DNA of 64,000 nucleotides, taken from NCBI GenBank assembly GCA_902518415.1, contig CABYGA010000003.1, positions 894-64,893 of the forward strand. Reading direction: 5' to 3'. Source of the DNA: an uncultured Pelagibacteraceae bacterium. GTDB lineage: Bacteria > Pseudomonadota > Alphaproteobacteria > Pelagibacterales > AG-422-B15. Both the position numbers and the translations under genes were made by a program. A model generated the notes under the pieces. The model did not search any database. It was not told where the DNA came from and saw only the letters and a program-made list of their open reading frames with translations. Positions 9,792 through 25,695 of this stretch are shown in pieces (position 1 is the stretch's first letter; every line of letters begins with the position of its first letter).

Positions 9792-9868
9792 TGGTGCGCC
9801 CAGAAGGATTCGAACCCTCAACCCTCAGATCCGAAGTCTGATGCTCTATCCAGTTGAGCTATGGACGC
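9792..9868 (-). tRNA. tRNA-Arg (anticodon UCG), CCA encoded
   Basis: The reverse complement folds as a cloverleaf: GCGTCCA TA GCTC AACTGGATA GAGC A TCAGA CTTCGGA TCTGA GGGTT GAGGG TTCGAAT CCTTC TGGGCGC A CCA. The 7-nt anticodon loop CT-TCG-GA gives anticodon TCG. Confidence 0.85.
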
Positions 9869-9892: not shown

Positions 9893-10315
9893 ATGCTTTT
9901 ACTTAAGATACTAGAAAAATTAGGCAGGAAAAAAGTTGTTATGGATAGAGGCCCATCACATCCTGAATATTGCTTAGCAAAGCCTTGGACAGCAAGATAT
10001 TATCTTTTGTTCAAAAAAAGACCCCGCTGGTTTCCATTTAATATATTAATACATCATATTTTAGATGATGATCATGGTGTGGGCCTTCATAATCATCCTT
10101 TTCCATATATTACAATTATAATCAGTGGAGGATACTGGGAGACAGATAAAAATAAAAATAAAATCTGGAGAGACAGATTCTATGTTGGCTTTAGAAGTGC
10201 TGACAACTTGCACAGAGTTGACTTAGAGCCTGGTATCAAGCCAGTCACTATCTATATCGCTGGTCCGTACGGACTAAGAAAGAAAGGCCGAAGTAATTAT
10301 GGTATTTCAAATTAA
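9893..10315 (+). CDS. hypothetical protein with LHNHPFP motif (possible small cupin-like fold)
   Basis: The ORF-track start at 9854 overlaps the tRNA, so the next ATG (9893) is used. The GLHNHPFPYITIIISGGYWE segment recalls a widespread uncharacterised HxHPW-type family. The function is unknown. Confidence 0.4.
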   Translation: MLLLKILEKLGRKKVVMDRGPSHPEYCLAKPWTARYYLLFKKRPRWFPFNILIHHILDDDHGVGLHNHPFPYITIIISGGYWETDKNKNKIWRDRFYVGFRSADNLHRVDLEPGIKPVTIYIAGPYGLRKKGRSNYGISN

Positions 10316-10585
10316 TTTATTTCTTAGCTGAGATCTTAATTGCCTATCTTTTTTTAAAAATATTTCTCTTCTCATTGCTTCTGACTTAGAGGATAATTCC
10401 TCTTGATATAATAATTTCCATTTAGATCCTCTTGTAAACTTTGCTCCTTTAGACTCATTATGTGCTTTAAGTCTTTTTTTAACATCATTACTCCAACCTA
10501 CATATGTTCGCACTTTCGGGTGTTTTGTTCCAATAATATAAACAAAGAATCTCATATTTTTTGATATATTAATTGTATTTGGCAT
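10307..10585 (-). CDS. GIY-YIG nuclease-family protein (stand-alone URI domain, UPF0213-like)
   Basis: 92 aa. FFVYIIG..TYVGWSNDVKKRLKAHN..GAKFTRG..WKLLY.E...SKSEAMRRE..LK is the GIY-YIG core pattern. Confidence 0.75.
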   Translation of the reverse strand: MPNTINISKNMRFFVYIIGTKHPKVRTYVGWSNDVKKRLKAHNESKGAKFTRGSKWKLLYQEELSSKSEAMRREIFLKKDRQLRSQLRNKLI

Positions 10586-10626
10586 TGAAATAAATATAGT
10601 ATCAATAAATCAAAAGGAGAATAAGC

Positions 10627-10743
10627 ATGCGTACTACTCTTACAGTTTTAGCTTTTAGTTTCATGATTTCAGCTTGTACTACTTTACAAAGCATAAATGA
10701 GACTGTTAAAGGCGACGGTGTTCCTTATATTCCAGGAATATAA
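10627..10743 (+). CDS. small (38-aa) putative lipoprotein, not in the ORF track
   Basis: Manual translation gives MRTTLTVLAFSFMISACTTLQSINETVKGDGVPYIPGI*. A strong Shine-Dalgarno AAGGAGA lies 7 nt upstream. The signal peptide carries a lipobox (MISAC). A stable stem-loop follows the stop codon. Confidence 0.5.
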   Translation: MRTTLTVLAFSFMISACTTLQSINETVKGDGVPYIPGI

Positions 10744-10751
10744 AGATATTT

Positions 10752-10776
10752 AACTGGCCTCATTATGGGGTCAGTT
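10752..10776 (+). terminator. stem-loop downstream of the small lipoprotein ORF (possible terminator, no U-tract)
   Basis: AACTGGCC(TCATTATGG)GGTCAGTT forms an 8-10 bp stem including one G.U pair. The sequence after it (ACACCTTG) is not T-rich, so its function is uncertain. Confidence 0.3.
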
Positions 10777-10844
10777 ACACCTTGTAATAATCAGTTAAAA
10801 AAGTTAATTGCCACAATCAGTTTCCATTAAGTATACTTAACTGT

Positions 10845-11972
10845 ATGTTTAGAGTACAAATATCGGGAACAGGACTATTCACTCCTCAAGAAAAAATTTC
10901 CAACCAAGAATTAGTCGACTCATACAATAAGTATGTAGATGAATACAATTCATCAAACTCTATAGATATAAATAATGGAAGTGTGGAACCACTAGAAAAA
11001 TCTAGTGCAGAATTTATTGAGAAAGCTTCAGGTGTAAAATCTAGATATGTTCAAAATAAATCAGGAATTTTGGATACATCCTTTATGCGTCCTAGACTTA
11101 TTGAAAGATCTGAGGATCAAATATCCAATCTTGCAGAAATGGGAGTAGTTGCCGCAAAAGAAGCTATAAAAAATTCTCAAATCGATATTAAAGAGATAGA
11201 TGCTGTAATTGTTGCATGCTCAAATTTAGAACGCGCCTACCCAGCAATAGCTATTGAGATCCAAAATGAATTAGGAATAGAGGGTTTTGCATTTGACATG
11301 AATGTTGCTTGTTCCTCAGCAACTTTTGGAATTCAAACTATTTTTGACATGATAAAGAGTGGAAGTATTAAATCAGCCTTAATGGTCAATCCAGAGATTT
11401 GTACTGGTCATTTAAATTTCAAAGATAGAGACTGTCATTTTATATTTGGTGATGTTGCAACAGCCGTAGTTTTAGAAAGAATAAATGAAGATATTCATAA
11501 AAATAATTCGTATGAAATACTTGGGACAAAGCTTCTTACAGAGTTTTCTAATAATATAAGAAATAACTATGGATTTCTGAATAGTTCGTCCCCTGAAGGA
11601 GTTGGCAAGGCAGACAAATTATTCCATCAAAATGGAAGAAAAGTATTTAAAGAAGTCATACCTAAAGTTTCTAATTTAATAAAGGATCATCTAGAAGAAA
11701 ATAAACTTTCCGCCGAGGATTTAAAAGGATTGTATTTGCATCAAGCTAATGAAAATATGAATGTTCTTATTTCTAAATATGTACTTGGCAGAGAAGCGTC
11801 TAAGGATCTGGCTCCCGTCGTACTCGACGAATATGCTAATACAAGTTCAGCTGGTTCAATAATTGCTTTTCATAAACATAACAACTCACTAAAAAAAGAT
11901 GATCTCGCAATTATTTGCTCATTTGGGGCAGGTTATTCTGTGGGGAATGTTATTGTGAAAAAGATTGCTTAA
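10845..11972 (+). CDS. beta-ketoacyl-ACP synthase III-family condensing enzyme (long, 375-aa paralog type)
   Basis: Thiolase-fold KAS III pattern with active-site Cys in DMNVACSSATFG, His in LHQANENM and Asn-region GAGYS. It is longer than canonical FabH (about 320 aa). Its end overlaps the convergent HD gene by 4 nt (TTAA). Confidence 0.75.
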   Translation: MFRVQISGTGLFTPQEKISNQELVDSYNKYVDEYNSSNSIDINNGSVEPLEKSSAEFIEKASGVKSRYVQNKSGILDTSFMRPRLIERSEDQISNLAEMGVVAAKEAIKNSQIDIKEIDAVIVACSNLERAYPAIAIEIQNELGIEGFAFDMNVACSSATFGIQTIFDMIKSGSIKSALMVNPEICTGHLNFKDRDCHFIFGDVATAVVLERINEDIHKNNSYEILGTKLLTEFSNNIRNNYGFLNSSSPEGVGKADKLFHQNGRKVFKEVIPKVSNLIKDHLEENKLSAEDLKGLYLHQANENMNVLISKYVLGREASKDLAPVVLDEYANTSSAGSIIAFHKHNNSLKKDDLAIICSFGAGYSVGNVIVKKIA

Positions 11973-12520
11973 AAATTTGGCTCCTTGGAGAACAGCTTCC
12001 TCACTTTTGGTTCAAAATATTCAAGAGAATATGACTCATAATCTGGATCAAAAGATTTTTGATCCCACTTTTCACAGAAATCCACTGCATCTTGATAATA
12101 AGGGTGATCTATGAATTTATCTCTAGCATTACGATCCCTCCCTATGTGATGAGCATAGTAATATTCTTGAAAAATCCCATGATGAAGCATAATCCAATAT
12201 ACTTTTTCAGAAACATAGGGCCTTAAAACTGAGGCAACAAGTTGACTATGATTATATGGGGCAAGATTATCTCCAATATCGTGTACAAGAGTCGCAACTA
12301 CCATTTCTTCATCTGCGCCATCTTTTTCAGCTCGAGTTGCTGATTGAAGTGAATGCTCTAACCTTGTTACTTGATAACCATCAACTGAACTATCTAAATT
12401 TCTCAAAGCGTCTAATATTCTGTCGGGAAGATCTTTTGAAAACTTTTCTTCATACATACTTAAAAGATCATAATCTTCTTTTGTGCCGTCTTTCATCTGA
12501 GTAAATTTTACTTTTTCCAT
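11969..12520 (-). CDS. HD-domain protein, candidate PhnZ/TmpB-like diiron oxygenase
   Basis: 183 aa. It has H56 (LEHSLQ) and HD at 80-81 (TLVHDIGD). Further His residues are H91, H113-114 and H124-125, and Asp D153/D158 lies in FCEKWDQKSFDPDY. The ATG abuts the stop of the upstream BBOX-like dioxygenase (0-nt gap). The HD fold is confident; the oxygenase function is inference. Confidence 0.7.
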   Translation of the reverse strand: MEKVKFTQMKDGTKEDYDLLSMYEEKFSKDLPDRILDALRNLDSSVDGYQVTRLEHSLQSATRAEKDGADEEMVVATLVHDIGDNLAPYNHSQLVASVLRPYVSEKVYWIMLHHGIFQEYYYAHHIGRDRNARDKFIDHPYYQDAVDFCEKWDQKSFDPDYESYSLEYFEPKVRKLFSKEPNF

Positions 12521-13612
12521 TTATATTTCCTCTGACAATAATTTAAACTTACTTTCTGCAGAATCGTGATCTATATATAATCCCTGCAGCCATCTATCAC
12601 CTTCAGCTGTATTATAACTTGTTCTACCATGAAGTGTTCGATAATTATTCATAATAATTAAATCTCCTGGTTCTAAGCGAAACTTAAATATATATTTAGA
12701 AGAATTTATCATTTTGTGCATCACTCTTTTTGACGCATAAAATTCATCAAGCTTTTTAGGGTCTTGATAAAAAACAAAATCCAGTCTGTTACTATACTTT
12801 ATTTGCTTTATTTCTCCTCGCTCACTTAACTTGATAATCTTACCTGTTTTTTCCAGTATAGCATCTTTGTCTTTAAATTTAAAATTGATAAGAGTATTCG
12901 TAAGTGTTTTAAACGCATTTGGATTTTCATTTTTTAAGTCTTCTGCAACCTTAAACCCATCAACAATTGTTGAGTCGCCTCCTTGGCAACTATTATGAAT
13001 ACAAAAAAGAAATTGAATCGAAGGTACTGGTTTTCGATATGGATTATCAGTATGAGACTCTAATTCAATGGATGTATATGCTAAATCGTTTGGTTGTTTT
13101 TGAGACTTAACGTTGAACAATTTTCCAAAATTAGTTTCTCTTATATATCCAATTTTTTTTGCAAAATTTATAATCTCACCATCTTCGGGTTTGAGTTTGC
13201 TTACAATTGCAAATCCGTATCTATGGTAATATTCTAATATCTCATAAATTTGTTTATTTTCATTTGTATTATAATCAAATTTAAACTTTCTAAGTGAGAT
13301 ACTGTCTTTATTCCAAAAAACTTTATCAGGAAGTCCCTTTGCTCTCTTTATTTCTTTAATTAAGTTTTTTATACAATACTTAGCTACATGATTATCTGAG
13401 AATTTAATTAATAGTTTATCTTCTTCTAACTTATTTACTTCTTTGATTTCTAAATTTTCAATGATTTTCTCTGGGTCATATAGTCGTTGCAGTGAATTTT
13501 GATCGACTGCTCCTTCTTCTAATGACCGTTCTCTCATCCATAAAGGATGAAGCTTATATTGCTCATCTCCAATAGAAAACCTTATTTCTTTTGAGTCATA
13601 ATTAAAATCCAT
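12521..13612 (-). CDS. gamma-butyrobetaine hydroxylase-like (TauD/BBOX family) 2OG-Fe(II) dioxygenase, paralog 1 (TmpA-like candidate)
   Basis: 363 aa. It has an N-terminal DUF971-like segment (LHPLWMRERS), an HxD facial triad in ESHTDNPY, a distal His in RTLHGRTSY, and WLQGLYIDHD near the C-terminus. Confidence 0.75.
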   Translation of the reverse strand: MDFNYDSKEIRFSIGDEQYKLHPLWMRERSLEEGAVDQNSLQRLYDPEKIIENLEIKEVNKLEEDKLLIKFSDNHVAKYCIKNLIKEIKRAKGLPDKVFWNKDSISLRKFKFDYNTNENKQIYEILEYYHRYGFAIVSKLKPEDGEIINFAKKIGYIRETNFGKLFNVKSQKQPNDLAYTSIELESHTDNPYRKPVPSIQFLFCIHNSCQGGDSTIVDGFKVAEDLKNENPNAFKTLTNTLINFKFKDKDAILEKTGKIIKLSERGEIKQIKYSNRLDFVFYQDPKKLDEFYASKRVMHKMINSSKYIFKFRLEPGDLIIMNNYRTLHGRTSYNTAEGDRWLQGLYIDHDSAESKFKLLSEEI

Positions 13613-13626
13613 AAAAAAATATAAAA

Positions 13627-15573
13627 CTAATTTTTTAATTCTTCAATATTTTCATATTCCGATAAACAAGCAGGGTTGGCTAAGGCCTCTAAATTCTTTA
13701 TATTCACGCCATTGATTATATCTCTCACAGTAATTTCTGCTATTTTGCCACTTCTTGTTCTAGGTATATCACTTACTTTAATTATTTTTGCTGGTACATG
13801 TCTTAAAGAATTAGAAAATCTAATATTATATTTAATTTTATCAATAATAACTTGATCAAGTTCAATATCCTTTTGGAGTTTCACAAATAAAATAATTCTT
13901 GTGTCATTGTTCCAAGTCTGACCAACTACAATAGATTCAACAATTTCATCTATTTGCTCGACAGACCTATATATTTCGGCAGTTCCAATTCTAATTCCGC
14001 CAGGATTCAATGTTGAGTCTGAACGTCCATAAATGACTATTCCCATATTTTTAGATATTTTAGCGTAATCACCTTGTGTCCATACATTCTTAAATTTTGA
14101 AAAATATGATTTAATATATTTCTCTTTATTTAAGTCATCCCAAAATCCAATCGGCATAGATGGAAGTGGTGATTTACATACCAACTCACCTTTTTGAAGC
14201 GAACCCTTACCTTTTTCATCAAAAACATCTACATCTACCCCAAGACACTTACTTTGTATTTCACCAGAGTAAACTGGCAACATTGGATTGCCACCTACAA
14301 AGCAAGAAACAATGTCTGTCCCTCCACTAATGGACGCCAGATGTATATCTTTTTTAATGAATTCGTAAACATACTCAAAACTTTCACTTATAAGTGGTGA
14401 CCCTGTGCTTAATATTGATTGAAGTTTATCTAAATTATATTTTTCTAGAATATTTACTTTATCATTTCTTAAAGCGTCAATAAATTTTGCACTTGTTCCA
14501 AAGCACGTTATTTCTTCTTCTTCAGCAATTTTAAAAAGGGTTTCTTTCTCTGGATGAAATGGGGATCCGTCAAAAAGTACTAATGAAACTCCTGATGCTA
14601 AACCTGTAATAAGCCAATTCCACATCATCCATCCACAGGTTGTATAATAAAATAATTTATCGCCTATTTTAAGATCACAGTGAAGCTGATGCTCCTTTAT
14701 ATGTTGTAAAAGTGGTCCACCAGTATTATGAACTATGCATTTAGGTTTACCAGTTGTTCCACTAGAATAAAGAATATACATTGGGTCATTAAATGAGTTT
14801 TCTTCAAAAATAATTTTTCCTTGATAAGTTTCTTTTTGAAAAATTGAATTTAAACTTATTTCATCTATTCCTTTATCTAGATTCTTGTCTGGATAATTAA
14901 TACAAATGGTATGTTCGAGTGTTTTGATATTATTGATTACATTTTTTATTTTCTTTTCAATATCAAATTTTTTTCCACCATATAAATAAATTTTAGAATA
15001 TAATAATACTTTTGGTTTTATTTGATTAAAACGATCTAAAATAGCTGTCTCGCCAAAATCTGGTGAACAAGATGACCAAATCGCCCCGATAGAGTTCACT
15101 GCTAAAAATGCAATTAGTGTCTCAGCACTGTTTACCGCAACAGCCGCGATCCGGTCTCCTTTTTTAACCCCAATAGATCTAAAATAGTTAGCTAATATTG
15201 AAGTTTTTAATACTAAATCTTCCTTATAATAACTTTTCTTGAAACCAAGTTCATTGATAAAGGTAATCGGGCATGAATTAAGATTAGATAAAATATTTTC
15301 TGCGTAATTAACTTTAATATTTTTGAAAAATTCTTGGTTATATATAGATTTATCTTTTTCAATAACAGGACTAGAACTTCCTTTGTACTTTATGCCCAGA
15401 TAATCAATTAAGCTTAGCCAAAATTCAGCAGGGTGATTAATGCTCCACGACCAGATTTTACCATAATCAAAGTTTAATTGTATTTTGTTGTTTTCTTCTA
15501 AAAAAATAAAATAATTATATAAATTTGTTTTTTTAATTCTTTCCTTAGATGGGCTCCAAAGCAACTTTGGCAT
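13627..15573 (-). CDS. acetoacetate--CoA ligase (acetoacetyl-CoA synthetase)
   Basis: 648 aa. It has the AMP-binding motif YSSGTTGKPKCIVH, an N-terminus LWSPSKERIKKTNLYNYF typical of AACS, and a C-terminal PRTRSGK. Confidence 0.8.
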   Translation of the reverse strand: MPKLLWSPSKERIKKTNLYNYFIFLEENNKIQLNFDYGKIWSWSINHPAEFWLSLIDYLGIKYKGSSSPVIEKDKSIYNQEFFKNIKVNYAENILSNLNSCPITFINELGFKKSYYKEDLVLKTSILANYFRSIGVKKGDRIAAVAVNSAETLIAFLAVNSIGAIWSSCSPDFGETAILDRFNQIKPKVLLYSKIYLYGGKKFDIEKKIKNVINNIKTLEHTICINYPDKNLDKGIDEISLNSIFQKETYQGKIIFEENSFNDPMYILYSSGTTGKPKCIVHNTGGPLLQHIKEHQLHCDLKIGDKLFYYTTCGWMMWNWLITGLASGVSLVLFDGSPFHPEKETLFKIAEEEEITCFGTSAKFIDALRNDKVNILEKYNLDKLQSILSTGSPLISESFEYVYEFIKKDIHLASISGGTDIVSCFVGGNPMLPVYSGEIQSKCLGVDVDVFDEKGKGSLQKGELVCKSPLPSMPIGFWDDLNKEKYIKSYFSKFKNVWTQGDYAKISKNMGIVIYGRSDSTLNPGGIRIGTAEIYRSVEQIDEIVESIVVGQTWNNDTRIILFVKLQKDIELDQVIIDKIKYNIRFSNSLRHVPAKIIKVSDIPRTRSGKIAEITVRDIINGVNIKNLEALANPACLSEYENIEELKN

Positions 15574-15594
15574 ATCAAAAATATTTATTATATC

Positions 15595-17019
15595 TTAGGC
15601 AATGTGGAGTGCTTTAGTTTCAAGGTAATCTTCTAGCCCCATGTCTCCACCTTCTCGTCCATTGCCAGATTCTTTATATCCTCCAAAAGGTGATCCGTAA
15701 TTATAACCGCCACCATTAACATGAACACCGCCAGCTCTTAATTGCCTTGAGACTCGTTCTGCTCTTTCTTTATCTCCCGTCTGCAAATAGGCAGCAAGAC
15801 CATAAGGAGTATCATTTGCTATTCTGATCGCCTCATCCTCATCATCAAAAGGAATTATAACTAGTACTGGACCAAATATTTCCTCTTGAGCAACTCTCAT
15901 ATTGTTATTTACGTCAGAAAAAATTGTTGGTTTTACAAACCATCCTTTTTCGTGGCCATCGGGCTTTCCAAGGCCACCTACTAATAGTTTTGCTCCTTCA
16001 TCAATACCAACTTGAATCATATTTTGAACCCGATCAAATTGAATTTTATCAAAGAGTGGTCCGAGATGGTCACCATCTAGTGTCGGATCACCTACCTTAA
16101 TTTCTTCAGCAGTTTTTTTTGCAATATCAATTACTTCATCATAGCATTTTTTTTCTACCAGTAACCTTGTAGGAGCATCACAAGATTGTCCTGTATTAAA
16201 CATACATTCATTTACTGAATCTTTTACTTTTTCATCTAAGTCACAATCTGCAAAGACAATGTTAGGTGATTTACCACCTAATTCTAAAGTTACTTTTTTT
16301 ACAGTTTCAGCAGATTCAATAGTTACTGACTTACCCCCTCTTTTTGAGCCAGTAAATGACATCATTTCTATATCAGGATGCCGAGACATCGACACACCTA
16401 CTCCTTCTCCATCTCCATGTACTAAATTAAATACACCATCAGGAACTCCGGCCTCATCTAGAATTTCAGCATAAACCATCGCTGATAAAGGTGTATGCTC
16501 AGACGGCTTTAAGATACATGTGCATCCTGTAGCAATCACTGGAAGGACTTTCAGTGTAATCTGATTAATGGGCCAGTTCCATGGAGTAATTAAACCACAA
16601 ACTCCTATTGGCTCTTTTAAAAGTACATCTGAATTAGAGAGAACAATTTTTTCTTCATGCTTCTTTAATGCATCAATAAAACCATCTAAATGTCCTATTG
16701 CAGCATCTGCCTGTGCATCTCGAGCCATTCTATGAGGAGCTCCCATTTCTGATGTCATTGCATTAGCAAGATCTTCAAATCTTTTTTCAGAGATCTTCCT
16801 AATTTTATTTAATAATTCTAAACGATCATTTTTTGAAGTTTTAGAAAAGCTATTAAATGCATTTTTTGCAGCGCTCACAGCCATATCTACATCTTCAGAA
16901 TTACCAAGAATTATCTCACCTATCAAATCTTCGGTTGCGGGGTTGAGAACTGCCATTGTTTTAGTTGAATTGGGTTTTACCCATTTACCGTTAATATAAA
17001 ATTTTTGAAGATTTTCCAT
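15595..17019 (-). CDS. NAD(P)-dependent aldehyde dehydrogenase (betaine-aldehyde or 4-trimethylaminobutyraldehyde dehydrogenase candidate)
   Basis: 474 aa. ALDH signatures are ITPWNWP, LELGGKSP (catalytic Glu) and FNTGQSCDAPTR (catalytic Cys). The substrate cannot be read from the sequence. Confidence 0.85.
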   Translation of the reverse strand: MENLQKFYINGKWVKPNSTKTMAVLNPATEDLIGEIILGNSEDVDMAVSAAKNAFNSFSKTSKNDRLELLNKIRKISEKRFEDLANAMTSEMGAPHRMARDAQADAAIGHLDGFIDALKKHEEKIVLSNSDVLLKEPIGVCGLITPWNWPINQITLKVLPVIATGCTCILKPSEHTPLSAMVYAEILDEAGVPDGVFNLVHGDGEGVGVSMSRHPDIEMMSFTGSKRGGKSVTIESAETVKKVTLELGGKSPNIVFADCDLDEKVKDSVNECMFNTGQSCDAPTRLLVEKKCYDEVIDIAKKTAEEIKVGDPTLDGDHLGPLFDKIQFDRVQNMIQVGIDEGAKLLVGGLGKPDGHEKGWFVKPTIFSDVNNNMRVAQEEIFGPVLVIIPFDDEDEAIRIANDTPYGLAAYLQTGDKERAERVSRQLRAGGVHVNGGGYNYGSPFGGYKESGNGREGGDMGLEDYLETKALHIA

Positions 17020-17088
17020 TTTGTTTTTTATTACATACTATACTATTCAAATTGTAAATTCTTTTTAATATTGTAACTTCATTGTCTT
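17020..17088. promoter_or_regulatory. 69-bp divergent control region between the two catabolic operons, with ATTGTAA direct repeats
   Basis: ATTGTAA occurs at 17051-17057 and 17070-17076, and ATTGTC at 17081-17086. This is the only non-coding DNA available for promoters of both operons. No regulator gene is nearby. Confidence 0.4.
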
Positions 17089-17973
17089 ATGAATAAAAAT
17101 GTTATCATTTCTTGTGCAGTTACCGGATCGGGGGACTCAGTTGGAAAGCATCCTAATATTCCTGTTACTCCTCAACAAATAGCTGATGCCTCTATTGAGG
17201 CAGCAAATGCTGGAGCCGCTATAGCCCATATTCATGTTAGAAATCCTGAAACTGGAAAGGGATCCCGAGATAATGAACTCTATAAGGAAGTAGTTAGTCG
17301 AATTAAAGATAGTGGAACGAATGTGATAATTAATCTCACAAGTGGAATGGGAGGAGATATAGAAATTGGTCCAGAAGATGATTTATTAAACTTTGGTTCG
17401 AATACAGATTTTGTAAATGCACTAGAAAGACTAAGTCACGTTGAAGAACTATTGCCAGATATATGTTCCTTAGATTGCGGCACTCTAAATTTTGGTGATG
17501 GAAATATGATCTATGTTGGAACCCCAGAACAACTAAGAATTGGCGCTAAGAGAATTCAAGAATTAGGAGTTAAACCTGAACTAGAAGTCTTTGATACAGG
17601 TCATTTGTGGTTTGCAAACCAGATGTTAGAGGAAGGATTGCTGGATCAGCCCTCATTGTTTCAAATTTGTTTAGGTATACCGTACGGTGCGCCTGCGACT
17701 ACCGGTTCAATGAAGAATATGGTTGATATGATACCTGAAGGAAGTAACTGGGGGGCTTTTGGAATTGGAATTAATCAAATGCCGATGGTAGCGCAAGCGG
17801 TATTATTAGGAGGCAATGTTAGAGTTGGTCTTGAAGATAATCTTTATTTAGAAAAAGGTGTTTATGCAACAAATGGATCACTTGTTGAGAAGGCTGGTAC
17901 AATAATAAATAATTTAGGCTCGAATGTAATGGGTCCTGATGAAGCAAGAATCAAACTTGGATTAAAAAGTTGA
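17089..17973 (+). CDS. BKACE-family (DUF849) beta-keto acid cleavage enzyme, dehydrocarnitine cleavage enzyme candidate
   Basis: 294 aa. The N-terminus [12 protein letters not shown]...[34 protein letters not shown] is typical of the 3-keto-5-aminohexanoate cleavage enzyme family. It is translationally coupled to the next gene. Confidence 0.8.
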
Positions 17974-18941
17974 AAAGAAAGATTGTTTCGATTATTGGAA
18001 CAGGCGTAATTGGCGCTGGATGGGCGGCACGATTTCTTGCTAAAGGTTATGTTGTTAAAGCTTATGACCCCAACAAAGAGTCGCTAGAAAAATTAAAAAA
18101 AAATATTCAGACTGCCTTTAAAAGTCTTAAAAAGTTAGGTTTAAATAAAAACGCTTCATTGAAGAATCTAAATGCTTTTACTAATTTGAATGATGCTTTA
18201 CATGAAACAACCTTTGTTCAGGAAAATGCGCCTGAAAGTGAAAGAATAAAAAAAAATATTCTAAAAAAAATTGATAATATAATTCCCAAAAATGTTATAA
18301 TTGCATCTAGTTCTTCTGGATTACTACCATCAAAAATTCAATCCGCCTGCAAATTTCCTGAAAGAGTTTTAATCGGACATCCATTTAATCCAGTATACTT
18401 ATTGCCTCTTGTGGAGATTGTAGCTGGTAAAAAAACTAGTCATACAAATGTTAAAAAATTAAAAAAATTATATGAACATATTGGAATGCGACCGCTCATT
18501 GTTCAAAAAGAAATTGAAGGATACATTTCAGACAGACTGCAAGAAGCTTTATGGCGTGAGGCCTTGCATATAATAAATGATGGCGTAGCATCAACTGAGG
18601 AAGTTGATGATGCTATTGTCTATGGTCCTGGATTAAGATGGGCTTTTATGGGGGTTTGTTTGACATTTCATTTAGCTGGTGGAGAAACTGGAATGAAACA
18701 TATGCTGGAGCAATTTGGTCCTGCTCTAAAACTACCTTGGACTAAGTTGAAAGCTCCTGAATTGACGGATAAACTAAAAAAAGCAATGGTTTCTGGAACA
18801 AAAAAACAGGCTGGAAAGTTTAATATCCAAGAGCTTGAGGAACAAAGAGATTTGTTTTTGATTGAAATTATGAAAACTTTAAATAAAAATCAAAAAGATA
18901 AGTTTCCAAATTGGGGTAGGAAATACAATAATTTTAAATAA
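17970..18941 (+). CDS. L-carnitine dehydrogenase-like 3-hydroxyacyl-CoA dehydrogenase family protein
   Basis: 323 aa. It has a Rossmann motif [20 protein letters not shown]. The long segment [17 protein letters not shown]...ALWREAL...[10 protein letters not shown]...[25 protein letters not shown] matches my recollection of bacterial carnitine dehydrogenases. The TTG start overlaps the BKACE stop (TTGA). Confidence 0.7.
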
Positions 18942-18944
18942 TTT

Positions 18945-20087
18945 ATGAGTCATAATCCATCTATATCGTCGTTGAAAAAGAATGCTAAGTCAATACTTGT
19001 TGATTGGAGTGATGGTGAGCAAAGTAAGTTTAATTTTTTATGGTTAAGAGATAATTGTCCATCAGAGGTTCATCCAACTGCAAGAGAGAGAACTTTCAAC
19101 CTACTAACAGTTACAGATGATATTCATCCAAAGTCTTATAAAGTAAATGATAAAGGTGAGCTTGAGATTGAATGGAGTGAGGGTGATCATACAAGTTACT
19201 ATGGCAATGATTGGCTAAGACATAATTGCTATACACTTAACAGTAAAAAAAAATATATATCACCATATTTTCTATGGGATCAAAGCATGGAGTCAAATTT
19301 TGAAGATATTCAAATAGACTATGAAGAAATTATTAGTGGAGATGATGGAATAAAAAAGTGGCTTGAGCAACTTCACTACAAAGGCATTTCTATTGTGAAA
19401 AACGCGCCTACAGAAAAGGAGTCTGGATTTGATGTAATTGCTAATATTAGTCACCATAGAGAAACATTTTTTAAAACACCTTTTGAAGTTATTGATATTC
19501 CTAATCCAAATAATTCTGCTTATACCGCAGCCGCGTTAAGAAATCATTTGGATCTCCCATACTATGAAATAGCACCAGGATATCAATTCTTGCATTGTCT
19601 GATTAACAATGCCACTGGAGGTGAGTCTGTCGCAGTCGATGGATTTAAAGTTGCTAGTTATATGAAAGAAAATTTTACTGAATTCTTTGAAACTCTCTTG
19701 GAAACTCCTGTAAAATTTGTAAATAGAGATTATACTTCAAATGCTATAAGAGTAATGCATAAGCCTCTATTTTCCTTAGATCACAATAATGATTTTAATG
19801 ATATAAGATTTAGTGTTGCTTATATGGGGGTCATGGACTGTGACCCCGACCAAATGGATAAGTTTTACGAAGCTTACCGAAAACTAATTGCCTTACTTCA
19901 CGATCCAATATTTGAAATAAATTTCAAACTTAAAGCTGGAGATATATTCAGTTTTAATAATAGAAGGGTGCTTCACGGTCGAAAAGAATACGATGCTAAT
20001 TCTGGTGAAAGACACCTGCAGGGATATTATATTGATAGAGATGAAATAATAGGAAGACTTAACTTTCTAAATAAAATTAATCCTTAG
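18945..20087 (+). CDS. gamma-butyrobetaine dioxygenase-like 2OG-Fe(II) dioxygenase, paralog 2
   Basis: 380 aa. It has a DUF971-like N-domain (FLWLRDNCPSEVHP), HxD in RNHLDLPYYE, a distal His in RVLHGRKEY, and HLQGYYIDRDE. Confidence 0.7.
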   Translation: MSHNPSISSLKKNAKSILVDWSDGEQSKFNFLWLRDNCPSEVHPTARERTFNLLTVTDDIHPKSYKVNDKGELEIEWSEGDHTSYYGNDWLRHNCYTLNSKKKYISPYFLWDQSMESNFEDIQIDYEEIISGDDGIKKWLEQLHYKGISIVKNAPTEKESGFDVIANISHHRETFFKTPFEVIDIPNPNNSAYTAAALRNHLDLPYYEIAPGYQFLHCLINNATGGESVAVDGFKVASYMKENFTEFFETLLETPVKFVNRDYTSNAIRVMHKPLFSLDHNNDFNDIRFSVAYMGVMDCDPDQMDKFYEAYRKLIALLHDPIFEINFKLKAGDIFSFNNRRVLHGRKEYDANSGERHLQGYYIDRDEIIGRLNFLNKINP

Positions 20088-21102
20088 ATCTTCTCAAGAT
20101 TTCAGCAATATTATTCTTAGAAATAACACCCACAAAATTTTTATCATTATCGAGTACATTAAGACCCGACTCACTTTCAAGCATAGTTGGTAGGCAGTTT
20201 TCAATACTTTCATCGACCATTACTGATGGATTAGACTCATTCATATTTCCATCTATGTTCATAATAGATCCAATTTTCAATACTTTAATTCGGTTCACAT
20301 CTTTTACGAAATTGGAAACATACTCATCAGCAGGATTGAGTAGGATTTCTTCGGCGTTACCATCTTGAACAAGTTTTCCACCATTTAGGATGGCAATTCT
20401 ATCGCCTAATTTAAGAGCCTCATCTAAATCATGAGTTATAAAAATAATTGTTTTTTTTAGATTTTTTTGTAAATCTAGAAGCTGGTCTTGCATATCTGTC
20501 CTTATAAGTGGGTCCAGTGCGCTAAATGCTTCATCCATTAATAGAATATCAGGATCTATCGCAAGTGCTCGAGCTAGCCCAACTCTTTGCTGCATGCCAC
20601 CTGATAATTGATTTGGAAATTTATTTTCAAACCCTGTGAGTCCCACTTTTTCAATCCAATACATTGCTTTGTCCTTCGACTCTGATCTGTCTAAATTTTT
20701 TATACTTAGTCCAAATTGAACATTGTCTAATATGTTATGATGAGGAAAAAGAGCAAATCTCTGAAATACCATGCCTGTTTTATTTCTTCTAAACTCAAGT
20801 AAATCTGCTTTATTCAGTTTAGTTATATCTTCTCCGTCGACTAATACCGTTCCTTCTGTTGGCTCTATCAAACGATTAATATGACGAATAAGAGTTGATT
20901 TTCCTGAACCAGATAAACCCATCACAACTTGAATAGATTGTTCTTTTATATCTAAATTTATATTGTCGAGTCCCAACACATGATTATATTTTGCGAGAAG
21001 CTCATCTTTATCAATCCCACTTTTTACTTTATCAGTGTATTCTTTGGCCCTAGGTCCAAATATTTTATATAATTTTTCAATTTTGATTTTAACTTCACTC
21101 AT
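20077..21102 (-). CDS. proV: glycine betaine/proline-type ABC transporter ATP-binding protein
   Basis: Walker A GLSGSGKST, signature LSGGMQQRVGLARA and Walker B ILLMDEAFSALD, plus a short CBS-like tail. I prefer the ATG at 21102 (MSEVKIKIEKLYKIFG), which overlaps the proW stop as ATGAGTGA. The ORF is open up to 21159. Confidence 0.85.
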   Translation of the reverse strand: MSEVKIKIEKLYKIFGPRAKEYTDKVKSGIDKDELLAKYNHVLGLDNINLDIKEQSIQVVMGLSGSGKSTLIRHINRLIEPTEGTVLVDGEDITKLNKADLLEFRRNKTGMVFQRFALFPHHNILDNVQFGLSIKNLDRSESKDKAMYWIEKVGLTGFENKFPNQLSGGMQQRVGLARALAIDPDILLMDEAFSALDPLIRTDMQDQLLDLQKNLKKTIIFITHDLDEALKLGDRIAILNGGKLVQDGNAEEILLNPADEYVSNFVKDVNRIKVLKIGSIMNIDGNMNESNPSVMVDESIENCLPTMLESESGLNVLDNDKNFVGVISKNNIAEILRRSKD

Positions 21103-21991
21103 TAGCGCCTGCTCTATGCTGCTGCATTCTTTTACCATAAGATTGGGATACTCTGTCAAATATAATTGCTAGTGCGACGATGGCTAAACCATTAAGTAAT
21201 CCCATTGTAAAGTATTGATTAGTTATTGCCTTTAAAACTGGTTGACCGAGACCCTTAACACCAATCATTGAAGCAATCACAACCATGGCTAGCGCCATCA
21301 TAATTGTTTGATTAATACCGGCAAAAATTGTAGGCAGGGCTAAAGGGAGCTGTACTCTAAATAGTTTTTGCATTCTGTTAGCTCCAAAGGCGTCAGCTGC
21401 TTCTAGTACCTCTTTATTGACTTCTCTTATTCCTAAATCAGTGAGTCTAATCACTGGAGGTATCGCATAAATAATAACAGCTAATAAACCTGGAATTTTT
21501 CCAATACCTAGCAACATAACAACAGGAATAAGGTAAACAAAGCTAGGCATGGTTTGCATGATATCCAATATTGGGGTAATCATTGCTCTTGCTCTATCAC
21601 TGCCAGACATAAGGATACCAACAGGAATTCCAAATCCAATAGTCAGCGCAGTACAAACACCAATGATACTTACTGTAGACATAGTATCATCCCACATTCC
21701 AAAGTAACCAATGAACAAAAACGCAAATAATGATCCAATAGTCAGGTAAATACTTCTACTGCCAAGATATACTAAGGCCAGTAGAGCAAGTATTACAAGA
21801 GGCCAGGGTGAATTATGCAGAAGCTTCTCAAACCAAACTAAGAAATAAAGAACTGGATCAAAAACAGCTTCTATAGCATCACCGTATTTTGCAGAAAAAC
21901 TTCTATAAGCACCATCAACTGACTTTTTAAAAAGCCTTAGACTTTCAGAGCTCATTTCAGGGAATGAAGTAAAAAATTCTATCAAGTTCAT
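21095..21991 (-). CDS. proW: glycine betaine/proline-type ABC transporter permease
   Basis: 298 aa and multi-TM, with an EAA-like loop EAADAFGANRMQKLFRVQLPLA typical of ProW/OpuAB permeases. Confidence 0.85.
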   Translation of the reverse strand: MNLIEFFTSFPEMSSESLRLFKKSVDGAYRSFSAKYGDAIEAVFDPVLYFLVWFEKLLHNSPWPLVILALLALVYLGSRSIYLTIGSLFAFLFIGYFGMWDDTMSTVSIIGVCTALTIGFGIPVGILMSGSDRARAMITPILDIMQTMPSFVYLIPVVMLLGIGKIPGLLAVIIYAIPPVIRLTDLGIREVNKEVLEAADAFGANRMQKLFRVQLPLALPTIFAGINQTIMMALAMVVIASMIGVKGLGQPVLKAITNQYFTMGLLNGLAIVALAIIFDRVSQSYGKRMQQHRAGANE

Positions 21992-21994
21992 CTT

Positions 21995-22028
21995 AAAAAA
22001 AAAGCGGGCTAAAAAGAAATTAGCCCGC
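21995..22028 (-). terminator. intrinsic terminator/attenuator between proX and proW
   Basis: The minus-strand RNA reads GCGGGCUA-AUUUCUUUU-UAGCCCGC followed by U9, ending 3 nt before the proW AUG. Confidence 0.7.
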
Positions 22029-22040
22029 TGTTATCAGCTG

Positions 22041-23057
22041 TTATATAGCTGCTTCTATTAGTTTACGCGTATCAGCATCAACCCAATCATGCCACTCACT
22101 ATAATTTTTTAAGAAGTATAGTGCAGCATCCTCACCAGAGGCTTGTTGATCTGCCATCCAAGCTAACACTTCGTTAACAGTTGTGTTTGGCAACGCTCGC
22201 TTCTCCATGTAGTCCATGGCACCACTGCCCGCTTGATTTTTAAAGCGATCTGTTACGTAAGTGAAGACCTCAGATAAAACCCAAGAATTCTTTTTTGGAT
22301 TTCCACAGTCTTGAGATGTGCAATTAGCCCATTCATCAGCATCAAACGGAACTCCAAAATCTAGTCTTTTCATTGGATACTTTCCAAGAATTGCTGTTGG
22401 GGCCCAATAATAACCCATCCAACCTTGTTTTTTATTATACGCTTCAGCAATTGAACCATCTAAACCAGCTCCAGAACCAGGGTCAACAAGTCTAAAGCCT
22501 TTAGACTCTGCTTCAAACGCCTTAAACAAATTGCCAGTACTTATTTGACAGTTCCAACCAGACGGACAAGTGTGAAGAGCTCCGTCACCACCTTCAGGGT
22601 GAGGAAATAATTCAGGTCTAGCAAGCGCATCCTCAACGGTCTGAATGTCAGGATTAGCGTCAGCTAAATACTGAGGAATCCACCAGCCTTCTTCACCATA
22701 ACTTGAAAGAACCATAGCACCATAATGAAGCTTGCCTTCATCAACAGCTTTATCAAGTTCAATTCTATTCGCATTTGCCCACATTTCAGGCGCAACATCT
22801 GGCTCCCCTTTAGAAACCATTGACGCAGTTGTTGGTTGTGTTGAACCAGGGACTAACTCGACATCACATCCAAATCCCTTTTCTAAAACAACTTTATCTA
22901 AATTAGCAAACATTTCTGCTGATGCCCAATCCATTTCAGCAACCGAAATGGTACCACAGTCAGAAACTTCTTGATTTCTGTCACAACTGACAGCAAAGAT
23001 CATCGCAAAACCTATAAGGAATACTGCAATAACCGATTTTCTCGAGAATAAACTCAT
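22041..23057 (-). CDS. proX: quaternary-amine (glycine betaine-type) ABC transporter substrate-binding lipoprotein
   Basis: 338 aa. The signal peptide carries a lipobox (FAVSC). It is an OpuAC/ProX-like Trp-rich protein (MDWASAEMF, EMWANA, GWWIPQY, GYYWAP). Confidence 0.8.
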   Translation of the reverse strand: MSLFSRKSVIAVFLIGFAMIFAVSCDRNQEVSDCGTISVAEMDWASAEMFANLDKVVLEKGFGCDVELVPGSTQPTTASMVSKGEPDVAPEMWANANRIELDKAVDEGKLHYGAMVLSSYGEEGWWIPQYLADANPDIQTVEDALARPELFPHPEGGDGALHTCPSGWNCQISTGNLFKAFEAESKGFRLVDPGSGAGLDGSIAEAYNKKQGWMGYYWAPTAILGKYPMKRLDFGVPFDADEWANCTSQDCGNPKKNSWVLSEVFTYVTDRFKNQAGSGAMDYMEKRALPNTTVNEVLAWMADQQASGEDAALYFLKNYSEWHDWVDADTRKLIEAAI

Positions 23058-24102: not shown

Positions 24103-25695
24103 ATGAAATTAAATAACTTTGATTATATTATAATTGGAGCTGGTAGTGCTGGTTGTGTACTAGCCAATCGCCTTTCATCAAATAAAGCTATTAATGTCCT
24201 GCTAATAGAATCTGGACCTTCAGACAATACTTGGAAGACTACAATGCCTGCAGCACTGCTTTATACAATGCACGATCCAAAATATAATTATCTTTATGAG
24301 TCTGAGCCAGAGCCATTTATGCATAATAGGACTATGTTCTGCCCCAGGGGCAAGATGTTGGGAGGAAGTTCCTCACACAATGGTATGGTTCATGTAAGAG
24401 GCAATGCAAATGATTTCGATAACTGGGGACAGTTGGGTTTAACAGATTGGACTTACGATAAAGTTTTACCCTATTTTAAAAAATCTGAGTCAGTTGAGGG
24501 TTTAGACTCAAATTTTCGAGGAGAGTCGGGACCATTAAAACTTTCAAGATCGCCCAATGGCAATATTCTTAGTCAAGTTTATTTAAATGCCGCTCAACAA
24601 GCTGGATATCAAATCAATAATGATATGAATGGTGAAAGACAAGAAGGTTTTGGATTAATGGATACAACTATTTTTAATGGAAAGAGGCAAAGTACAAGCG
24701 TTACTTATCTTCATCCAATAAAGCACAGATCTAACTTGGAGATATTAACAAACGTAACTGTAAATAAGATACTATTTGAGGATAAAAAAGCTGTTGGGGT
24801 TGAATGCAAGGCGAATGGTGAAAATAAAAAATATTTTTCAAGCAAAGAGGTCCTTCTTTCTGCTGGGGCTATAAATTCACCTCAACTACTTATGCTATCT
24901 GGAATTGGTCCAGAAAATGAATTATCAAAATATAGCATTGAGCCAGTAGAGTGTTTGGAGGGAGTTGGGAAAAACTTGCAAGACCATCTTGAAACCTATG
25001 TTCAATATAAATGTAAAAAGCCTGTAACACTGCACAGTGCTCAGAACCCATTAAAAATGGCATTGATAGGTGCTGAATGGTTTTTGTTTAAGACAGGTGT
25101 TGCTGCACACTCTAATCTAGAAACAGGTGGATTTGTGAGGAGCAATGAAATGTCTGATTATCCAAATATGCAATTCCATTTTTTTCCATCTTTAGTTTTA
25201 GATCATGGTAGAAAGAGCACTACCTGCCATGCTTTTCAAGCACATGTTGGACCGATGCGACCTACTAGCAGAGGATCAGTAAAATTAAAATCAGCTAATC
25301 CAAACGATGCGCCTTCAATCCAATTCAATTACATGCAAACTGAACATGATCTTAGAGAAATGCGAGAAGGAATAAAAATTGCAAGGGAGATATTTAATCA
25401 AAAAGAATTCGATGAATATAGAGGAGAAGAAATCTCTCCAGGAAGTGATATAAACAATGATGAAGATCTGAATAATTTTATAAGAGATAAAGGAGATACT
25501 GCATACCATCCATCATGTACGTGTAAAATGGGTAAAGATAATTTATCAGTTGTAGACGAGGAGCTGAAAGTATACGGAATAGATGGATTGAGAGTCATAG
25601 ATGCATCTATTATGCCTAATATTATTACGGGTAATCTGAACGCATCAACAGTAATGATTGCTGAAAAGGCGTCTGACTCAATTATAAATAATTAA
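24103..25695 (+). CDS. betA: choline dehydrogenase (GMC oxidoreductase)
   Basis: 530 aa. It has FAD motif DYIIIGAGSAGCVLANRLS, GMC signatures GKMLGGSSSHNGMVHVRG and SAGAINSPQLLMLSGIG, and C-terminal HPSCTCKMG. Confidence 0.8.
   Translation: MKLNNFDYIIIGAGSAGCVLANRLSSNKAINVLLIESGPSDNTWKTTMPAALLYTMHDPKYNYLYESEPEPFMHNRTMFCPRGKMLGGSSSHNGMVHVRGNANDFDNWGQLGLTDWTYDKVLPYFKKSESVEGLDSNFRGESGPLKLSRSPNGNILSQVYLNAAQQAGYQINNDMNGERQEGFGLMDTTIFNGKRQSTSVTYLHPIKHRSNLEILTNVTVNKILFEDKKAVGVECKANGENKKYFSSKEVLLSAGAINSPQLLMLSGIGPENELSKYSIEPVECLEGVGKNLQDHLETYVQYKCKKPVTLHSAQNPLKMALIGAEWFLFKTGVAAHSNLETGGFVRSNEMSDYPNMQFHFFPSLVLDHGRKSTTCHAFQAHVGPMRPTSRGSVKLKSANPNDAPSIQFNYMQTEHDLREMREGIKIAREIFNQKEFDEYRGEEISPGSDINNDEDLNNFIRDKGDTAYHPSCTCKMGKDNLSVVDEELKVYGIDGLRVIDASIMPNIITGNLNASTVMIAEKASDSIINN

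Follow-up and report, generated by a model that had tools for sequence, protein, structure and literature searches.

The window analysed here is a stretch of 64,000 nucleotides (GC content ~33%) from contig CABYGA010000003.1 of an uncultured Pelagibacteraceae bacterium, and the subject of this report is a pair of abutting genes on its minus strand. The upstream gene encodes a 363-aa Fe(II)/2-oxoglutarate (2OG) dioxygenase of the BBOX/TmpA family (DIOX363; 12521..13612, −), and the downstream gene encodes a 183-aa HD-domain protein that is a predicted diiron oxygenase (HD183; 11969..12520, −); the groups to which they were assigned are designated clade Q and HD-Q, respectively, the latter a distinct family. 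The TAA stop of the dioxygenase gene occupies 12523-12521 and the ATG of the HD gene starts at 12520, leaving a gap of 0 nt, and these coordinates agree with both open reading frames (ORFs) and their junction as given in a preliminary description of the window. The closest database entries to HD183 (93-98% identity) are named "HD domain-containing protein [Pelagibacteraceae bacterium]". The pair recurs among SAR11 genomes with protein identities as low as 70-80%, its two genes abutting (0 nt), narrowly spaced, or slightly overlapping, and the same pair was also found in unrelated high-GC bacteria; translational coupling of the HD gene with the dioxygenase gene is tight and is conserved from SAR11 to high-GC bacteria.

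HD183 matched the Pfam HD model below threshold (21 bits; cut-off 22), and the NCBIfam phosphonate-HD models NF049941 (TmpB), TIGR03276 (Phn-HD), and NF052439 scored 37.5, 43.7, and 30.3 bits against cut-offs of 300, 214.6, and 300, respectively, aligning only to residues ~25-87. In pairwise searches, HD183 matched PhnZ (4e-7) and TmpB (2e-5) with only residues ~36-86 aligned, the stretch aligned to TmpB being residues 43-86 only. A profile was built from 38 diverse HD-Q members and searched against the whole PDB; PhnZ (5e-16) and TmpB (1e-14) were the only significant matches, the next reaching E = 0.11, and the profile alignment to PhnZ, unlike the pairwise one, extended over the full length. 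The metal ligands of PhnZ are H34, H58, D59, H80, H104, and D161 (PMC7916636), and in the profile alignment these correspond to H56, H80, D81, H91, H114, and D153 of HD183, each of which is 100% conserved across 91 HD-Q members. The HD core with the six predicted ligands spans 12062..12355 (−), with codons at 12353-12355 (H56), 12281-12283 (H80), 12278-12280 (D81), 12248-12250 (H91), 12179-12181 (H114), and 12062-12064 (D153). The preliminary description had given a spacing of 24 residues from the first His to the HD dyad of PhnZ, which is correct (H34 to H58) and matches HD183; the residues it had listed, specifically H56, H80-D81, H91, H113-114, H124-125, D153, and D158, are all present, but H113, H124/125, and D158 do not fall at ligand positions.

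An AlphaFold model of HD183 (pLDDT 97.4) was compared with the PDB by Foldseek, and ranks 1-10 were all PhnZ or TmpB structures (TM 0.62-0.69); MIOX was next among HD proteins (probability 1.0, TMq 0.55), and HD hydrolases did not exceed TM 0.42. A grouping with HD phosphohydrolases, which the preliminary description had named as evidence that would speak against an oxygenase, was seen neither in the profile search nor in the predicted fold. Because of this fold and metal site, both taken from alignment and modelling, HD183 is placed with the HD oxygenases.

Within that group, HD183 was found to be distinct from PhnZ and TmpB at the positions that handle substrate, as assessed by an alignment of the 91 HD-Q members with three TmpB-type HD proteins (L086, L089, and P0312). 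The YxxE loop gates and binds substrate in PhnZ (Y24/E27) and TmpB (Y30/E33) (PMC8177086), and has no counterpart in HD183, where the aligned residues are V46 and Y49. The position of PhnZ H62, the His after HDxG, is D84 in HD183 and D or E in 98% of HD-Q; the position of K108, the Lys four residues past the fifth ligand, is Q118 and Gln in 100% of HD-Q; at the R158 position there is no basic residue, and C149/E150 are found there instead. PhnZ H62 contacts the substrate hydroxyl, and K108 and R158, together with the equivalent of TmpA R288, are residues that we take to bind the phosphonate. The three TmpB-type HD proteins carry H and K at the H62 and K108 positions, and an 11-residue insert between the HD dyad and the next His in PhnZ and TmpB is absent from HD183. 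H62, K108, and R158 are also the non-ligand residues that have been used to curate phnZ (PMC9381506, Table S2). HD-Q has an invariant set of its own, comprising R53, R63, D84, F117-Q118, R133, C149, and F157-D158 in the 91 members. The family is large, with 2256 clusters at 50% identity (E <= 1e-3) and at least 7971 proteins at E <= 0.001 in a 90%-identity collection, and is carried by SAR11, SAR86, SAR324, Actinomycetota, and cyanobacteria and, as fusions, by several protist lineages. By these alignments, HD183 belongs to a sister family of PhnZ/TmpB and is not of PhnZ/TmpB type.

DIOX363 was assigned to Pfam TauD (1.7e-40), and alignment to TmpA and human BBOX1 identified an Fe triad of H187 and D189 (in SHTDNPY; codons 13052-13054 and 13046-13048, −) and H328 (in TLHGRTSY; 12629-12631, −), the HxD and distal His already pointed out in the preliminary description, along with the 2OG arginine R340 and an aromatic cage formed by F162, F166, Y179, and Y346. 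A DUF971-like N-domain had likewise been proposed; the corresponding Pfam match (GBBH-like_N) is present but sub-threshold (20.4 bits; cut-off 22.8), and the domain is without the zinc cysteines of BBOX, as is that of TmpA. Among NCBIfam models, TmpA (NF049936) scored best at 338.6 bits, yet below its cut-off of 400, followed by BBOX (TIGR02409; 293.8, cut-off 414.75) and the trimethyllysine hydroxylase TMLH (TIGR02410; 184.2, cut-off 268.3). A PDB search favoured TmpA (1.6e-57) over BBOX (6e-44), and the top Foldseek matches of the structural model (pLDDT 91) were TmpA and then BBOX1, which were about equally good.

Motif comparison and a neighbour-joining tree, by which the dioxygenase clades were defined, resolved a TmpA clade ("T"; TNYG, PxNLAYT, HTDNPYRDPV, and NNRS), clade Q (TNFG, P[SN]D[IL]AYT, HTDNPYR[DK]PV, and SxR[LV]D), a BBOX-like "type 2" group, and true BBOX. 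DIOX363 has HTDNPYR and the Arg of NNRS in common with TmpA, but the Asn of NLAYT is replaced by D176 and NNRS by SNRLD, and the tree placed it with HD-Q-linked proteins in a clade of their own. This clade is sister to TmpA, and the clustering with BBOX that the preliminary description had named as counter-evidence did not occur. The clade-marker residues D176, R193, and R276 are encoded at 13085-13087, 13034-13036, and 12785-12787 (−), and D278 is a further marker. R193 and R276 are common to clade Q and TmpA and absent from BBOX and from a paralogue elsewhere in the window (18945-20087). The carboxylate ligands of BBOX, N191 and N292, correspond to D176 and S274; D176 is invariant in clade Q, and D278 is an additional acidic residue of clade Q that TmpA does not have. 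The substitution at D176 is the same as that in TMLH, where D231 has been proposed to hold the alpha-ammonium group of trimethyllysine (PMC7764450); by sequence, this is a single-residue resemblance and not TMLH membership.

The two clades of dioxygenase were followed by different HD proteins. Clade-Q dioxygenases preceded HD-Q in the window, in SAR11 loci L001-L007, and in L081, L084/85, and L090 (GC 49-66%), whereas clade-T dioxygenases preceded TmpB-type HDs (HDIGH, the insert, and HVAAKRY) in L086-L088, L089, and P0312. In a metagenome scan, of the 56 clade-Q loci in which sufficient sequence followed the dioxygenase, 35 had HD-Q directly downstream, and a TmpB-type HD was found in none of 80 clade-Q loci. 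By these associations, TmpA-clade/TmpB-type and clade-Q/HD-Q are two parallel, co-evolving pairs. Among genome loci, a BBOX-like gene was directly upstream of HD-Q in 17 of 80, and a PhyH dioxygenase was within ±7 kb in four, immediately following the HD gene in L015; in SAR324, HD-Q is flanked by a PhyH dioxygenase. Eukaryotic fusions carry HD-Q C-terminal to clade-Q or BBOX-like (GBBH_N+TauD) dioxygenases in oomycetes (Saprolegnia, Achlya, and Aphanomyces), an amoebozoan, the ochrophyte Tetraparma, and other protists. Membrane fatty-acid-hydroxylase/sterol-desaturase domains are fused to HD-Q in six further proteins from Mantoniella and marine metagenomes (P0152, P0275, P0315, P0318, P0326, and P0327) and are a third kind of hydroxylase partner for HD-Q. 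The main ground for reading HD-Q as the step following hydroxylation is that it is fused or adjacent to hydroxylases of three families in this way.

Several other arrangements were encountered among the relatives of the pair. L089, a 2.4-kb contig of 30% GC from a low-GC marine organism, carries a canonical TmpA-clade dioxygenase (in a cluster of 227 sequences) followed by a TmpB-type HD; true TmpAB and clade-Q/HD-Q are thus both found in plankton of this kind. P0312 (773 aa, on a 4.9-Mb contig) joins three parts, a PF01663 phosphodiesterase, a TmpB-type HD, and a TmpA-clade dioxygenase, in a single fusion, which suggests that 2-(trimethylammonio)ethylphosphonate (TMAEP) may be freed from a phosphono-ester and then undergo TmpAB chemistry, all in one polypeptide. 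A set of clade-Q-like dioxygenases from low-GC marine sources (25-31% GC; L096, L097, L100, L106-L111, L126, L135, L141, and L156), several with NHRLL and not SxRLD, was without a downstream HD though sequence was available there; this set may be a further specificity subgroup. In SAR324 and related loci (L015, L038, L049, and L018), the HD gene occurs with a class II aldolase and a PhyH dioxygenase, and in some of them also with a BBOX-like gene and BKACE.

The pair in the window closes a minus-strand series of an aldehyde dehydrogenase (ALDH; 15595..17019, −; BADH-like, below equivalog cut-offs), an acetoacetate-CoA ligase (13627..15573, −; NF002937, 842 bits, cut-off 639), DIOX363, and HD183, with gaps of 21, 14, and 0 nt. 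Their prediction as a four-gene operon, with ALDH first, rests on these gaps of 0-21 nt, since a promoter/terminator scan of 10500-17300 returned matches no commoner than in shuffles and was uninformative about the transcription unit. The acetoacetate-CoA ligase arrangement is kept in SAR11 L001-L007, and other marine loci have ALDH homologues (47-54% identity) close to their clade-Q/HD-Q pairs. A FabH-like beta-ketoacyl-ACP synthase III gene (10845-11972, +; NF005703, 595.7 bits) is convergent with the HD gene, whose stop it overlaps by 4 nt; this convergence is kept in all SAR11 loci, and a 50%-identical homologue lies near HD in a metagenome-assembled genome of Myxococcales (L053).

Divergent from the operon lie BKACE (17089..17973, +), an L-carnitine dehydrogenase-like protein (17970..18941, +; NF005471, 372.7 bits, cut-off 414), and the second BBOX-family paralogue of 380 aa (BBOX380; 18945..20087, +). 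By score (BBOX 307.6 > TmpA 267.9), motifs, and tree, and lacking R193, R276, and D176, BBOX380 is a probable gamma-butyrobetaine hydroxylase and a better BBOX candidate than DIOX363. Beyond it are three genes for a ProV/ProW/OpuAC-type betaine/choline/carnitine ATP-binding cassette transporter (20077..23057, −), an EamA transporter, and, at the island end, the choline dehydrogenase BetA (24103..25695, +; NF002550, 772.9 bits, cut-off 605); the remainder of the window holds housekeeping genes. The betaine-centred surroundings described earlier were thus recovered, with betaine/carnitine catabolism genes flanking the pair, and the carnitine route, as predicted from BKACE, carnitine dehydrogenase, the second BBOX, and acetoacetate-CoA ligase, is near-complete. 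A similar quaternary-amine island is known from Arctic SAR11 isolates, in which a class II aldolase is also listed and the HD gene is unmentioned (PMC12421898). The 69-nt divergent region between ALDH and BKACE (17020-17088) contains a direct repeat of ATTGTAA (~17051 and ~17070) that could be a candidate regulator site, and no Pho-box-like sequence was recognised in it by eye. A tRNA-Arg(TCG) (9792-9868) lies between housekeeping genes and the island, close to a stand-alone GIY-YIG nuclease-domain ORF of 92 aa (10307-10585, −; Pfam 1.5e-15) and a PF13759 2OG-Fe(II) oxygenase ORF (9184-9783, −), and this stretch may be an island boundary or integration site.

Comparable surroundings were seen elsewhere: the clade-Q/HD-Q pair lies beside BHMT, DMGDH, and SoxBDAG in L081 and beside two BCCT transporters in L084/85; in high-GC L090, L128, and L164, BKACE is found by the pair, joined in L128 by carnitine dehydrogenase and a GbdR-like regulator and in L164 by ALDH; and in L168 and L170 the pair is beside BetB, BetA, and a PotF-like binding protein. 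Across ~100 related loci, HD-Q is found by betaine, carnitine, and sarcosine genes, and quaternary-amine genes (MttB, RACo/pterin-methyltransferase, DMGDH/sarcosine-oxidase-like, GbdR-like, ProWX, and BBOX-like) were counted within 7 kb in 32 of 73 non-SAR11 HD-Q genome loci. Phosphonate-transporter and Pho-regulon genes were not found among the neighbour clusters and seed families examined for ~170 related loci; a weak Pfam match to Phosphonate-bd came from one binding-protein gene adjacent to HD in Nostoc. In four loci from soil and peat metagenomes (L155, L164, L168, and L170; 60-67% GC), the gene directly upstream of the pair encodes a PotF-family binding protein (388-396 bits in L164 and L168; cut-off 636) and is itself downstream of BetB-BetA, or of ALDH alone in L155 and L164, which hints, by family, that the substrate is recognised as an amine. 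A role for this protein in binding 2-aminoethylphosphonate was considered and rejected, as AepX and PhnS are of a different family and there was no match to the PhnS model. The AMP-binding, FadB-like, and pyridoxal-phosphate-type genes of L081 and L084 were considered as a gamma-butyrobetaine-CoA route, which was dropped; they are convergent, their best matches are DmdB-like and O-acetylhomoserine sulfhydrylase proteins, and they are probably dimethylsulfoniopropionate (DMSP)/methionine genes.

From these sequence comparisons, we consider it moderately probable that the pair forms a coupled two-step oxygenase cascade acting on a trimethylammonium compound and is a paralogue of TmpA/TmpB. The general idea of the preliminary description, an Fe/2OG hydroxylase working with an HD diiron oxygenase of the PhnZ/TmpB kind, is upheld by the six ligands, by profile matches confined to PhnZ and TmpB, and by the fold, and the fallback offered there, a new substrate variant of this chemistry, has become the better-supported reading. 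In the first step, as suggested by family and conserved residues, the aromatic cage of DIOX363 would hold the trimethylammonium group of a quaternary-ammonium compound while a nearby methylene carbon is hydroxylated, with specificity set by R193 and R276, as in TmpA, plus D176 and D278, which TmpA does not have. In the second, as suggested by ligands, fold, and partner genes, HD183 would hold two irons through H56, H80, D81, H91, H114, and D153; the new hydroxyl would coordinate one iron, O2 would be activated at the other, and the bond beside the carbinol carbon would be cut in a four-electron oxidation that leaves this carbon as a carboxylate, in the manner of MIOX, PhnZ, and TmpB. Because the carbinol carbon would become a carboxylate, the product would be a betaine acid, namely glycine betaine, or gamma-butyrobetaine from a longer substrate, and would enter the neighbouring betaine/carnitine pathway.

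Regarding the substrate, TMAEP is possible given the arginines shared with TmpA, but is disfavoured by the separate TmpAB pairs, the lost PhnZ/TmpB substrate residues, the acidic D176, D278, and D84, the carbon-catabolic operon, and the absence of phosphorus context among the loci examined; on sequence, the evidence points away from TMAEP and towards a carboxylate- or amino-acid-type quaternary amine that would undergo a C-C cut. A C-C-cleaving cascade of 2OG hydroxylase and HD oxygenase is known from SmaO/SmaX (PMC12186529). Candidate substrates include an amino-acid betaine such as trimethyllysine, beta-alanine betaine, and carnitine itself. A specific but doubtful version is that the pair would convert N6-trimethyllysine, or a comparable amino-acid betaine, to gamma-butyrobetaine by a shortcut: DIOX363 would be a TMLH-like 3-hydroxylase in which D176 binds the alpha-ammonium and R193/R276 the alpha-carboxylate, and HD183 would cut C2-C3 of the vicinal amino-alcohol in a MIOX-like manner, yielding gamma-butyrobetaine, glyoxylate, and ammonium and replacing the steps of 3-hydroxytrimethyllysine aldolase and trimethylaminobutyraldehyde dehydrogenase. 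The product would then pass via BBOX380, carnitine dehydrogenase, BKACE, and acetoacetate-CoA ligase to glycine betaine, which would make all of the island genes sequential.

Three other explanations were weighed. The pair might simply be a functional TmpA/TmpB, in which TMAEP is hydroxylated at C1 and the C-P bond is cleaved oxidatively to glycine betaine and phosphate. TmpA is the best hidden Markov model, PDB, and Foldseek match of the dioxygenase; the TmpA clade, unlike BBOX and BBOX380, has HTDNPYR, R193, and R276 as DIOX363 does; neither DIOX363 nor TmpA retains the zinc cysteines of the N-domain; HD183 has PhnZ and TmpB as its nearest relatives; and a glycine betaine product suits the island. 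However, both proteins fall below the NCBIfam equivalog cut-offs, and HD183 is without the YxxE loop, H62, K108, R158, and the insert, which are conserved in PhnZ, TmpB, L086, L089, and P0312; the dioxygenase forms a separate clade in which N176 has become D and NNRS has become SxRLD; canonical TmpA+TmpB pairs exist separately (L089 and the phosphodiesterase fusion P0312); the examined neighbours across the ~170 loci hold no phosphonate-transporter or Pho genes apart from the one Nostoc match; and the pair is in a predicted operon with carbon-catabolic genes. We consider this explanation unlikely, and the filing of the pair as TmpA/TmpB or PhnY/PhnZ with phosphate release from TMAEP, as first proposed, was not sustained, given the sub-cut-off scores, the lost PhnZ residues, the sister clade with its different HD pairing, and the betaine context. 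Less probable still is a reading of HD183 as a standard dinuclear HD phosphohydrolase whose substrate might be phosphocholine, a nucleotide, or a glycerophosphodiester product and which merely lies beside a BBOX-like hydroxylase: this reading would explain the database name "predicted HD phosphohydrolase", the many HD-Q members without a neighbouring hydroxylase, and the glycerophosphodiester phosphodiesterase listed by the BBOX gene of the Arctic SAR11 island (PMC12421898), but not the poor profile and fold matches to HD hydrolases, all of which are outranked in the fold search by the three structurally known HD oxygenases, the repeated fusion or adjacency of HD-Q to TauD/BBOX-like, FA_hydroxylase, and PhyH proteins, or the close translational linkage to the dioxygenase gene, which holds in SAR11 and high-GC bacteria alike. 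Also improbable is a fixed, naturally hydroxylated HD substrate, most plausibly L-carnitine converted to glycine betaine and a C2 acid, for which neighbouring dioxygenases only supply substrate and DIOX363 in SAR11 would be a second route into that pool and not a dedicated partner with a new substrate. The HD tree tracks taxonomy and not partner type, no conserved position separates HDs found with clade-Q, type-2 BBOX-like, or betaine-demethylation genes, many dioxygenase-less HD loci lie inside MttB/DMGDH/Sox operons that consume glycine betaine, and the type-2 partners look BBOX-like; against this, the window already has carnitine dehydrogenase and BKACE for carnitine, clade Q differs from BBOX exactly at the substrate-binding positions, the fusion proteins argue for dedicated coupling, and we know of no HD-oxygenase precedent for a C-C cut without a heteroatom on the neighbouring carbon.

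Several observations also count against the preferred reading, a coupled cascade on a trimethylammonium compound. The retention of R193 and R276 as in TmpA, and the conserved HD-Q arginines R53, R63, and R133, make a phosphonate substrate possible. The substrate-positioning residues of PhnZ/TmpB, Y24, E27, and H62, are all replaced, so the catalytic geometry of HD183 may differ. No adjacent HD was present in 21 of the 56 clade-Q loci, and more than half of the HD-Q loci were without an adjacent dioxygenase; because many loci of both kinds are unpaired, hydroxylase-HD coupling is frequent but not obligatory. No position in the HD core distinguished partner dioxygenase types except two non-catalytic ones, and a single HD substrate therefore fits better than several; the undifferentiated cores, as aligned, favour a common recognised moiety or a single substrate. 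The neighbour annotations came from naive ORF calls and BLAST seeds without a random-locus control. Finally, the ligand set does not by itself decide between oxygenase and hydrolase, since the H..HD..H..H..D arrangement is also found in dinuclear HD hydrolases, YqeK and HD-GYP among them (PMC8177086).

In the literature consulted, the only HD-fold oxygenases described are MIOX, PhnZ with its variants PhnZ1 and PhoF, TmpB, and the atypical SmaX (PMC8177086, PMC10574752, PMC12186529), and no model, structure, or described function for clade Q or HD-Q was found in Pfam 2025, NCBIfam June 2026, PDB 2026, or PMC/bioRxiv to mid-2026. If HD-Q oxidises quaternary amines, it would be a new entry route to the marine glycine-betaine/carnitine pool of the ocean's most abundant heterotrophs; if the trimethyllysine shortcut were true, HD183 would be the first diiron HD oxygenase to cut an amino-acid C-C bond, and the eukaryotic dioxygenase-HD fusions would be an unrecognised carnitine-biosynthesis route. 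The clean split into two pairs offers a direct comparison for what sets substrate and bond specificity in the cascade. Clade-Q/HD-Q is abundant in major marine bacteria, which bears on the counting of "phnZ-like" genes in ocean phosphorus studies: marine surveys gathered phnZ via COG4341 and HDIG annotations (PMC9381506, Table S1), and oxidative phosphonate mineralisation would be overestimated if HD-Q were tallied under phnZ or tmpB. This is offered as a caution only; HD-Q fails the residue criteria H62, K108, and R158, and the idea that it has inflated published phnZ counts was rejected, as the COG4341 screen was followed by curation on these residues (PMC9381506).

Among known systems, BBOX and TMLH share with the window dioxygenase their family, fold (TM 0.87 to human BBOX1), and aromatic cage, and D176 equals TMLH D231; it differs from BBOX in its two extra arginines, the missing zinc site, and D176/S274 for N191/N292. 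MIOX (PDB 2HUO) is likewise an HD-fold diiron oxygenase, and its C-C cut beside a metal-bound carbinol with four-electron oxidation is the chemistry that would apply to HD183 if the substrate is not a phosphonate; however, MIOX has at least 258 aa, Lys and not Asp after HDxG, no partner hydroxylase, and no detectable sequence similarity. SmaO/SmaX, from a pathway to aminomalonate in ribosomally synthesised and post-translationally modified peptides (PMC12186529), similarly combines an Fe/2OG hydroxylase with an HD-fold oxygenase that cuts the C-C bond of an alpha-hydroxy carboxylate, but SmaX has a single iron, no HD aspartate, and a peptide-bound substrate, whereas HD183 keeps the full dinuclear set and would act in small-molecule catabolism.

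PhnY*/PhnZ (PDB 4MLM, 4MLN, and 4N6W; TIGR03276) has the same order of hydroxylase and then HD oxygenase, with a mixed-valent diiron site in PhnZ, which is the best sequence and fold match of HD183 and has the same 24-residue His-to-HD spacing. Eukaryotic gene fusions occur in both families, that of PhnZ including PhnZ1 (methylphosphonate) and the fused fungal PhoF; no Fonsecaea (PhoF) protein was among the relatives of the HD-Q fusions in a search limited by its word indexing. PhnZ differs in Y24, E27, H62, K108, and R158, none of which is kept in HD183, and PhnY* differs from the window dioxygenase, which is BBOX/TmpA-like with a trimethylammonium cage. TmpA/TmpB of Leisingera caerulea (PDB 6NPB-6NPD and 6NPA; NF049936 and NF049941) has the same layout, a BBOX-family hydroxylase followed by an HD protein of ~185 aa: TmpA has HTDNPYR, the equivalents of R193/R276, the aromatic cage, and the loss of the zinc site in common with the window dioxygenase, and TmpB has the fold and all six metal ligands of HD183. 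The window dioxygenase is, however, only ~31-33% identical to TmpA, from a sister clade, with D176 for Asn and SxRLD for NNRS; HD183 is without the YxxE loop, the His after HDxG, the AAKR lysine, and the 11-residue insert of TmpB; and the window pair lies in a context of betaine/carnitine catabolism.

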